From Escherichia phage LMessi: a DNA stretch of 37,205 nucleotides. The notes under the pieces were generated by a model that worked only from the letters and a program-made list of their open reading frames with translations, was not told the origin of the DNA and ran no database searches. The DNA lies in sequence record PP925823.1; one strand, given 5' to 3'. This document shows positions 36,992-37,205 of the stretch, in pieces. A program made the position numbers and the translations under genes. Position 1 is the stretch's first letter; each line of letters begins with the position of its first letter.

Positions 36992-37205
36992 TTGATTTTC
37001 CTTTTAGGCGTGAGCCTGTCGCACGGCAAAGCCGCCGAAAGTTAGCGGTTTGCCCAGGCTCACAGCTGAAAGTCTTTCTTTGATGTGCGCGTGCGATGCG
37101 CTTGTAGATCAAACAATGAGCTAATAGATTTGATTACGGGCTGATTTGAAGGCTATTCTCGGATGGTTTTTCCTTAATGGTATCAACACATAAGATGGAG
37201 GTTTT

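Follow-up and report, generated by a model that had tools for sequence, protein, structure and literature searches.

A candidate family of pseudoknotted leader RNAs ahead of accessory genes in the late operon of lambdoid phages

Results

Genomic context

We analysed a 37,205-nucleotide (nt) stretch of DNA of Escherichia phage LMessi (PP925823.1), hereafter the window, and report on a structured element near its end that lies directly in front of a glycosyltransferase gene. The window corresponds to a lambdoid phage of HK97/mEp390 type. Along its minus strand, a Q-like antiterminator gene is followed by the late promoter and terminator pR'/tR', a gene for a 141-amino-acid (aa) moron-class protein, the holin genes, the endolysin gene, Rz-like genes, and the circular junction of the genome. 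Past the junction, the same strand carries a hairpin, the genes for a 485-aa glycosyltransferase and a 196-aa glucosyltransferase, an HNH endonuclease gene, and the terminase genes. Because the minus strand carries the late operon, we took it as the sense strand of the hairpin, and from the sequence the element is predicted to be transcribed from this strand within the Q-dependent late transcript. The window harbors two copies, copy 1 in front of the glycosyltransferase gene and the divergent copy 2 in front of the 141-aa gene (Table 1).

Structure of the element

The initial annotation had described a nested inverted repeat in this region as a long potential stem-loop upstream of the glycosyltransferase gene. 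A repeat search and reading of the sequence both placed the repeat at 37010-37063, directly upstream of the minus-strand gene, whose ATG is at 36991-36989. Folding of the region yielded -32.8 kcal/mol for the 64-nt hairpin, compared with -21.2 ± 2.9 kcal/mol in dinucleotide shuffles (z = -4.05; none of 200 shuffles was equally stable), and the 108-nt element around the hairpin also folded more stably than its shuffles (z = -3.76). The stem-loop is conserved, with compensatory changes across hundreds of phage and prophage copies. It is only the middle part of a larger pseudoknotted RNA element rather than an isolated stem-loop, which extends the original description.

The consensus begins, in most copies after a terminator hairpin and U-run, with GCGC-A-UCGCAC-GCGC (P1), the linker CAUCAAA-GAAAG-U, and CUUUCAG-NN. 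The middle part consists of GUGAGCCUG (P2), GGCAAACCG (P3), the apical loop UUAA-CUUUC-GG, and CGGCUUUGCC (P3'). The 3' part consists of GUGCGA (internal loop), CAGGCUCAC (P2'), and NN-CUAAAAGGAAA, which contains the Shine-Dalgarno sequence and is followed by N4-7 and AUG. In this fold, P2 and P3 make one long bent hairpin, the P1 loop pairs with the one-sided internal loop (PK1), the linker pairs with the apical loop (PK2), and a basal helix encloses P2 and P3 and takes in the 5' half of the Shine-Dalgarno region. Unguided RNAalifold recovered P1, the basal helix (CUUU.AG with CU.AAAG), P2, and P3, and the basal helix was also present in the minimum-free-energy fold of copy 1. The apical loop is variable in length, and some copies have an insertion of 13-14 nt that makes an extra small hairpin. 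Copy 1 matched the covariance model with 136 bits.

Covariation and strand

We examined a covariance-model alignment (A3) of 48 distinct copies chosen for diversity. In A3, 93.1% of the cells were paired as opposed to 85.2% in shuffles, double compensatory changes were found in 29 of 37 pairs (11.0 ± 1.9 in shuffles), and there were 69 further pair types (47.3 ± 2.6 in shuffles); none of 500 shuffles reached any of these values. When the partners were slid by 1-3 columns, pairing fell to only 29-42%. P1 was paired in 92-96% of cells, with G.U wobble variants present. P3 changed from C-G to G-C, U-A, and U-G, and P2 showed compensatory changes in divergent copies.

Although the covariance model did not include PK1, each of the six PK1 pairs showed double compensatory changes and 95.4% of the PK1 cells were paired. 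Besides UCGCAC:GUGCGA, the PK1 types are UCGUAC:GUACGA and UCGCAU:AUGCGA, and in other subtypes UCUCAC:GUGAGA, UCCACC:GGUGGA, CGCUC:GAGCG, CGCCC:GGGCG, and UGCCC:GGGCA. For PK2, the full 5-base-pair (bp) complement was found in 89 of 90 distinct copies, compared with 56.7 on average and at most 66 when linkers and loops were permuted. Per-sequence shuffling of the apical loop was not significant with such short strands, so the support for PK2 is the covariation between its types, of which there are at least eight: GAAAG:CUUUC, GAGAG:CUCUC, CGAUA:UAUCG, CGAGACA:UGUCUCG, CCACAGAG:CUCUGUGG, CCUGCAGAG:UUCUGCAGG, CGUCGA:UCGACG, and CCCGAG:CUCGGG. The basal helix covaries with the Shine-Dalgarno sequence itself (CUUU:AAAG, CCUUUA:UAAAGG, ACCUUA:UAAGGU, CCUUUC:GAAAGG, CUUUU:AAAAG).

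Three parts are nearly invariant across the subtypes A, B, and C described below, namely P2 (GAGCC/GGCUC), CUUUCAG, and CUAAAAGG, while the other helices change freely. In the 5'-anchored scan of species genomes, where the 3' arm CAGGCUCAC was left unanchored, this arm had no mismatch in 40 of 43 full copies; the remaining three were single-base variants, two of them G.U/U.G wobbles. Where C has changed to U in the 5' arms, the result is a U.G wobble in the minus-strand RNA but an A.C mismatch on the other strand. Since these wobbles pair on the minus strand only, the structure is selected in minus-strand RNA, not in DNA or an antisense transcript. We conclude that the element is very probably a conserved structured RNA of about 105-125 nt.

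Distribution and subtypes

In BLAST searches with the end of the window, conservation was confined to about 105 nt (36997-37101), and the flanks were unrelated on both sides. The identity to copy 1 was 92-97% in mEp213, mEp043, mEp237, mEp390, phi80, HK639, Fraca, and FSL SP-016; the element is also present in HK106. In complete Escherichia coli genomes, BLAST found it in 222 of 5426, and among the matches listed no annotated feature lay under the element. A scan of IMG/VR anchored on the 3' arm and the Shine-Dalgarno sequence gave at least 120 loci, and alignment A2 comprises their 81 distinct cores. With a 17-base pattern for the 5' arm, we also scanned a single genome of each species and obtained 99 loci; 49 of these lacked the 3' arm, a few others were chance near-matches, and about 43 true copies were left after filtering for the 3' arm. 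All of these were from Enterobacteriaceae or Erwiniaceae, in genera including Enterobacter, Citrobacter, Kluyvera, Kosakonia, Buttiauxella, Superficieibacter, Pantoea, and Erwinia.

A further collection scan for CCUUUCAG variants, again with at least 120 loci, yielded subtypes B and C besides subtype A, to which copy 1 belongs. Subtype B precedes antirepressor-like genes of the rha-like and ant-like kinds; the 149 phage records in which it was found include those of 73 Stx2a-converting phages and of the P22-like phage epsilon34. In phi80 it stands before rha (43639-43779 of the record), directly after an annotated terminator, and in HK639 it is at 47243-47383. Subtype C is the tR'-proximal form, represented in the window by copy 2. 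This copy starts 18 nt past the T-run of tR', ends at the start codon of the 141-aa gene, which is the first late gene, and keeps every helix; compared with copy 1, it has compensatory changes in P2, PK1 (A-U to U-A), and PK2. Two copies are present in phi80 (the other at 45233-45358 of the record) and in HK639 (the other at 10022-10147), and several phages have two or three. In the Stx2a-converting phage LC645412.1, copies at 2128-2273 and 3494-3640 (locus L351) occur in the orders endolysin gene, copy, ant-like gene, which splits the lysis cassette, and Rz gene, copy, rha-like gene.

Some copies are damaged. L214 (Franconibacter pulveris) has a truncated element, with the beginning of an HNH endonuclease gene joined directly to its 5' half; L110 has lost the whole P2/P3 hairpin, and L079 has lost P1. 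These copies are traces of recombination within the element. In the RefSeq record of phi80, a hypothetical coding sequence, gp50 (45229-45528 of the record; 4730-5029 in L350), overlaps the element on the opposite strand. This gene call, made where a structured RNA lies, is probably spurious.

Searches for known signals

Neither copy matched any of the 4227 models of Rfam 15 at E values up to 10; eight related loci of subtypes A and B had no match at E up to 1, and the whole window had none at the gathering thresholds. An intrinsic terminator was rejected for copy 1, as no T-run follows the hairpin on either strand (GCCUAAAAGG comes next in the sense direction and AGCUGAAAG in the antisense direction), and no terminator-like site was found on either strand of 36700-37205. 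A sigma-70 promoter with 16-18 nt spacing was likewise rejected, with no site in 36700-37205 or in 33600-37205. An informal inspection by eye for sigma-E, sigma-54, ops/JUMPstart, boxA, CsrA, and IHF motifs found none that fitted. A small open reading frame (ORF) was also rejected: the ATG at P1 becomes TTG, CTG, ACG, or AAG in many copies, and insertions or deletions of 1-3 and 13-14 nt break the frame.

By location and annotation, the element is distinct from two other structured RNAs of this phage group. In HK639, both the putL-like antiterminator RNA (34187-34312) and the M3-like RNA (37910-37969) are annotated in the early region, and neither overlaps a copy of the element; the phi80 M3 RNA measures about 60 nt and is encoded downstream of cII in the early right operon.

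Genes behind the element

The start codon of the downstream gene is located 4-7 nt past GGAAA in all 129 copies. Of the 44 flank types examined, nearly all have the 5' half of the Shine-Dalgarno sequence paired within the basal helix. The element thus has the paired Shine-Dalgarno sequence and the fixed distance to the start codon by which a Shine-Dalgarno-sequestering leader is recognized. The downstream proteins fall into at least 14 unrelated clusters. In the annotated examples examined, the element is always in the orientation of the late operon and ends at the start codon of different genes: the glycosyltransferase gene (window and mEp390), phi80 gp49 and its homologues in Nissle, HK639 gene 13 in the tail gene cluster, a 'tail tip fiber protein' gene in an E. 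coli H6 prophage, and small ORFs. The genomic positions vary as well, being after Rz, within tail gene clusters, or after tR'. The largest cluster is a modular family with the lambda-J tail-tip domain PF09327 and a conserved C-terminus ending in ALKPGGLLY (DAIRNALKPGGLLY). PADLOC found no defence-family match for the cargo proteins.

Among 98 distinct upstream contexts of subtype A, 72 have an intrinsic terminator, consisting of a variable hairpin and a U-run, that lies 0-16 nt ahead of P1; for subtypes B and C, nearly every context has one. Terminator-like sites after the cargo ORF were found in 12 of 106 and 9 of 76 cases (about 12%), compared with 8 of 222 control windows. A cassette model of element, ORF, and terminator was rejected on this ground. 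Because few cargo ORFs precede a terminator, the terminator is tied to the 5' side of the element and does not mark the 3' end of a cassette.

Two side observations concern these contexts. In members of the PF09327 family (L013, L055, L049, L047, L090, and others), the N-terminal domains vary and the genes lie outside or inside tail clusters; these proteins could be decoys or alternative receptor-binding modules. Three loci with no terminator (L043, L054, L090) share, as judged by eye, TTGAAG-N17/18-TAAATC about 7-10 nt before P1, which may be a promoter starting transcription at the 5' edge of the element.

The window edge and the reverse-oriented ORF

The initial annotation had also read the terminal GGAGG as the ribosome-binding site of a plus-strand gene running past position 37205. 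The window closes with ...AAGATGGAGGTTTT and opens with ATGAGTATT..., in which base 1 starts the ATG of a 125-aa ORF (1..378). Contig L129, which encodes a 93%-identical protein, has the same element, the same AT-rich spacer, and then '...aaaatggagatttt|ATGagcattcaagtgctt' unbroken; searches of viral contigs for the exact junction and a look-up of the exact protein gave no match. Because L129 carries the unbroken junction, the window is a circularly permuted phage genome whose end and start are contiguous. Extension beyond the end therefore bore out the predicted gene, so that both the gene past the edge and the conservation of the stem-loop, on which the initial annotation had made its reading depend, were found. 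The GGAGG is a feature separate from the leader element.

ORF 1..378 has a G+C content of 40% compared with 52% for the window, and the region 37102-37205 plus 1-410 is AT-rich (36-40% G+C). The ORF is followed by a terminator of its own (388-410), while the sequence ahead of it had no detectable sigma-70 promoter. Its product matches phrog_12178 and had no match in Pfam or PADLOC, and relatives occur at the same place in six viral contigs. Since this reverse-oriented ORF is inserted there, copy 1 has no upstream terminator of the usual kind. The arrangement resembles the 'noncontiguous operon' of phi80 taiEcA (tai/ati) (PMC11364771).

Neighboring features

On the minus strand, the region 34624-36991 between the element and the terminase genes contains the 485-aa and 196-aa glycosyltransferase genes and a gene for an HNH endonuclease similar to gp74 of HK97. 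The two transferase genes are separated in mEp390 by the insertion of a second HNH gene. On the same strand, pR' and tR' delimit a short 6S-like transcript (2908-2996). Its Rfam matches, to isrK and leader-peptide families, were weak and below threshold (14.9-23.8 bits, E 0.18-3.3) and are probably driven by the terminator hairpin; the Gifsy-1 isrK model matched here only, not on the element.

Table 1. Features of the window and predicted parts of the two element copies
Feature	Position	Strand	Details
Element copy 1, subtype A	36997..37101	-	P1 5' strand to Shine-Dalgarno; directly upstream of glycosyltransferase gene
P1 hairpin	37087..37101	-	GCGC (37101-37098) : GCGC (37090-37087); 7-nt loop A-UCGCAC (37097-37091)
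PK1 5' strand, UCGCAC in P1 loop	37091..37096	-	partner GUGCGA, 37024-37019
PK1 3' strand, one-sided internal loop GUGCGA	37019..37024	-	
PK2 5' strand, GAAAG in linker	37074..37078	-	partner CUUUC (37041-37037) in apical loop
P2 5' arm GUGAGCCUG	37055..37063	-	partner 37018-37010
P2 3' arm CAGGCUCAC	37010..37018	-	
P3 inner stem	37025..37054, including apical loop 37044-37036	-	37054-37045 : 37035-37025, one bulged C
Basal helix	37001..37072	-	CUUU (37072-37069) : AAAG (37004-37001); AG (37067-37066) : CU (37007-37006)
Shine-Dalgarno region AAAAGGAAA of glycosyltransferase gene	36997..37005	-	5' half within basal helix
Outer repeat arm, left	37010-37018		GTGAGCCTG; P2 3' arm on minus strand
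Outer repeat arm, right	37055-37063		CAGGCTCAC; P2 5' arm on minus strand
Inner repeat arm, left	37025-37035		GGCAAAGCCGC; one base bulged
Inner repeat arm, right	37045-37054		GCGGTTTGCC
One-sided 6-nt internal loop	37019-37024		TCGCAC (plus-strand letters)
Apical loop	37036-37044		9 nt
485-aa glycosyltransferase gene, cargo of copy 1	35534..36991	-	phrog_1579, E = 6e-252; weak Glycos_transf_2 match
Element copy 2, divergent, subtype C	2757..2898	-	42.4 bits, E about 1e-9 to 1e-11 (covariance model)
Copy 2 P1	2890-2875	-	
Copy 2 PK2	CCACAGAG (2867-2860) : CUCUGUGG (2818-2811)	-	extended to 8 bp
Copy 2 P2	GUGAGCCA (2849-2842) : UGGCUCAC (2791-2784)	-	
Copy 2 internal loop GAGCGC	2797-2792	-	
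Copy 2 Shine-Dalgarno	within 2780-2771	-	
141-aa moron-class gene, cargo of copy 2	2338..2763	-	phrog_632, E = 3e-64; before holin genes
tR' terminator	2932-2911 + T-run	-	immediately upstream of copy 2; pR'/tR' region 2908..2996
Late promoter pR'	2995-2966	-	TTGACT, 18-nt spacer, TATGCT
Q-like antiterminator gene	3037..3819	-	phrog_127
Shine-Dalgarno GGAGG of ORF 1..378	37197-37201	+	TTTT next, then window base 1
125-aa ORF, reverse-oriented moron	1..378	+	between Rz gene and element copy 1

Discussion

We propose that the element is a portable cis-acting 5' leader that gates translation of the gene behind it, and we put the probability of this reading at roughly 60%. The gating step taken alone is close to an even chance, or slightly below it. 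In the proposed mechanism, the folded leader would hold the ribosome-binding site in the basal helix and would thus be closed by default. Translation of the cargo would then require the fold to breathe or to be opened, whether by temperature, a protein, a small RNA, or a ligand. Such a leader would provide inserted accessory genes with a self-contained initiation region, acting as both translational gate and insulator. Together with the upstream terminator, it could silence cargo that is potentially harmful, such as the rha-like and ant-like regulators, glycosyltransferases, and J-tip-like proteins, unless the region is heavily transcribed by Q-modified polymerase.

This functional kind, a structured leader that sequesters the Shine-Dalgarno sequence, is already known. 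In Mu com/mom, lambda cIII, and Gifsy-1 isrK-orf45, a cis-acting 5' structure likewise takes in the ribosome-binding site of a phage gene that is potentially harmful, and expression is in each case presumed to need opening of the structure. The element has no sequence or covariance-model similarity to these leaders and, with its two pseudoknots, is far more elaborate; it precedes at least 14 unrelated genes, whereas each of those leaders serves one gene. A pseudoknot beside the initiation region is also found in the T4 gene 32 leader, the S4 operator of the E. coli alpha operon, and the rpsO/S15 operator. Those operators are autoregulatory and tied to a single gene product, whereas the cargo of the element differs from copy to copy, and its regulation therefore cannot be autogenous. 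In RNA thermometers of the fourU/ROSE kind, a short U-rich strand pairs with the Shine-Dalgarno sequence in a simple hairpin that melts at 37-42 °C. In the element, CUUU pairs with AAAG of the Shine-Dalgarno sequence at the base of a fold of -42 kcal/mol, whose pseudoknots a thermometer would not require. The put RNAs of HK022/HK639 and the phi80 M3 RNA are likewise structured non-coding RNAs of the same lambdoid group, but put, which has two stem-loops acting on downstream terminators, is located just past the early promoters (pL/pR), whereas the element follows terminators in the late operon. The moron units of HK97-like phages (promoter, gene, terminator) occupy the same niche of accessory genes in the late operon, especially in the gap between lysis and packaging genes. 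Unlike the moron signals, the element is not a promoter but an RNA fold 5' of late-strand cargo, of which only the minority noted above is followed by a terminator. In the open-access literature, no paper was found that prints the 15-nt core sequences, shorter fragments matched only unrelated eukaryotic and viral papers, and keyword searches yielded nothing beyond context. On the basis of these open-access texts, the family, its fold, and its terminator-linked, cargo-independent use appear to be undescribed.

Several points weigh against a translational gate. Being short and rich in A-U pairs (4+2 bp in copy 1), the basal helix may occlude the Shine-Dalgarno sequence only weakly. The P2 sequence is conserved far beyond the needs of pairing, which suggests that a partner recognizes it or that it belongs to a catalytic or ligand-binding core. 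A pure translational gate leaves the tight link to an upstream terminator unexplained. In alignment A3, all helices other than PK1 and PK2 were fitted to the structure of the model. Horizontal transfer has left many copies closely related, and part of the sequence conservation therefore reflects recent common descent. Everything beyond a conserved structured RNA is inferred, on sequence evidence.

Because the P2 conservation and the terminator link are not fully explained, a processing site, a ribozyme, and a protein or ligand sensor stay in contention. In the first two cases, the element would be a punctuation mark for RNA processing or stability: a host RNase (E, III, or P) would cut at the element or in the U-rich spacer that separates the upstream terminator hairpin from P1, or a new class of ribozyme would cleave itself, splitting the late transcript into an upstream piece ended by the terminator and a cargo mRNA whose 5' end is structured and protected. 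The terminator hairpin and U-run just before P1 in most copies do leave a single-stranded A/U-rich stretch between two hairpins, P2 plus P3 at about 19-20 bp are roughly of the length of an RNase III substrate, and a compact double-pseudoknotted fold with invariant nucleotides is reminiscent of small ribozymes. The pistol and twister ribozymes in particular are of similar size (about 50-110 nt), pair a hairpin loop with the internal loop of a second hairpin, have a second tertiary pairing and some invariant nucleotides, and often occur in phage DNA. However, the consensus fold matched neither family in Rfam, and no Rfam ribozyme matched the element even at the most permissive cutoff. In the pistol ribozyme, the pseudoknot partner is located before P3, on the other side of the internal loop, whereas the PK1 partner of the element is on the 3' side of this loop, after P3. 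Cleavage would also leave unexplained why the Shine-Dalgarno sequence is built into the basal helix and covaries with it, and about one-quarter of the subtype A copies have no upstream terminator. We consider this reading unlikely.

A sensor, that is, a small-ligand riboswitch or an operator for a phage or host protein or a small RNA that switches cargo translation, would have parallels in Com on the mom leader of phage Mu and in IsrK on the Gifsy-1 leader. The near invariance of P2, CUUUCAG, and CUAAAAGG across the three subtypes is what such a site would be expected to show, and pseudoknots adjoining the Shine-Dalgarno sequence are typical of translational riboswitches and operators. In addition, the rha gene of phi80 and P22, which is among the cargo genes, is reportedly harmful in hosts without IHF, implying that the host has some input on its expression. 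The cargo genes, however, have no common metabolic theme, which is unusual for a metabolite riboswitch, and the conserved positions are mostly in helices, not junctions; a dedicated sensor seems quite unlikely. That the element acts only as DNA, as a recombination 'linker' between mosaic genomes or a palindromic protein-binding site, would fit its place at mosaic junctions with unrelated flanks and the copies that are truncated and fused to the HNH gene (L214) or devoid of the hairpin (L110). It is nevertheless very improbable, because compensatory changes keep the pairing in four helices and two pseudoknots, the G.U wobbles fit one strand only, and loops and stems diverge while the pairing stays, which homology for recombination would not select for. 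A plain intrinsic terminator or a promoter of the glycosyltransferase gene, which a G+C-rich hairpin in an intergenic region might suggest, can practically be dismissed, given that the real terminators of other copies are located ahead of the element.

A broader view, which we regard as doubtful, is that the element founds a new late-operon RNA class of temperate enterobacterial phages, being a ligand- or protein-responsive riboregulator or a self-cleaving ribozyme that serves as a portable 'terminator plus leader' adaptor and makes its cargo strictly Q-dependent.

Although lambdoid coliphages are among the best-studied genetic systems, the element is unannotated in the curated phi80 and HK639 records and absent from Rfam 15. 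Its carriers are classical phages, Stx2a-converting phages, and prophages of many genera of Enterobacteriaceae and Erwiniaceae, where it precedes accessory genes, including genes in the niche of defence and counter-defence. If the element is a riboswitch or a ribozyme, it would be a new class. If it gates translation or processing, it would represent a general control point for the moron, defence, and anti-defence cargo of prophages and, as a natural expression 'adaptor' that does not depend on context, would be of interest for synthetic biology.

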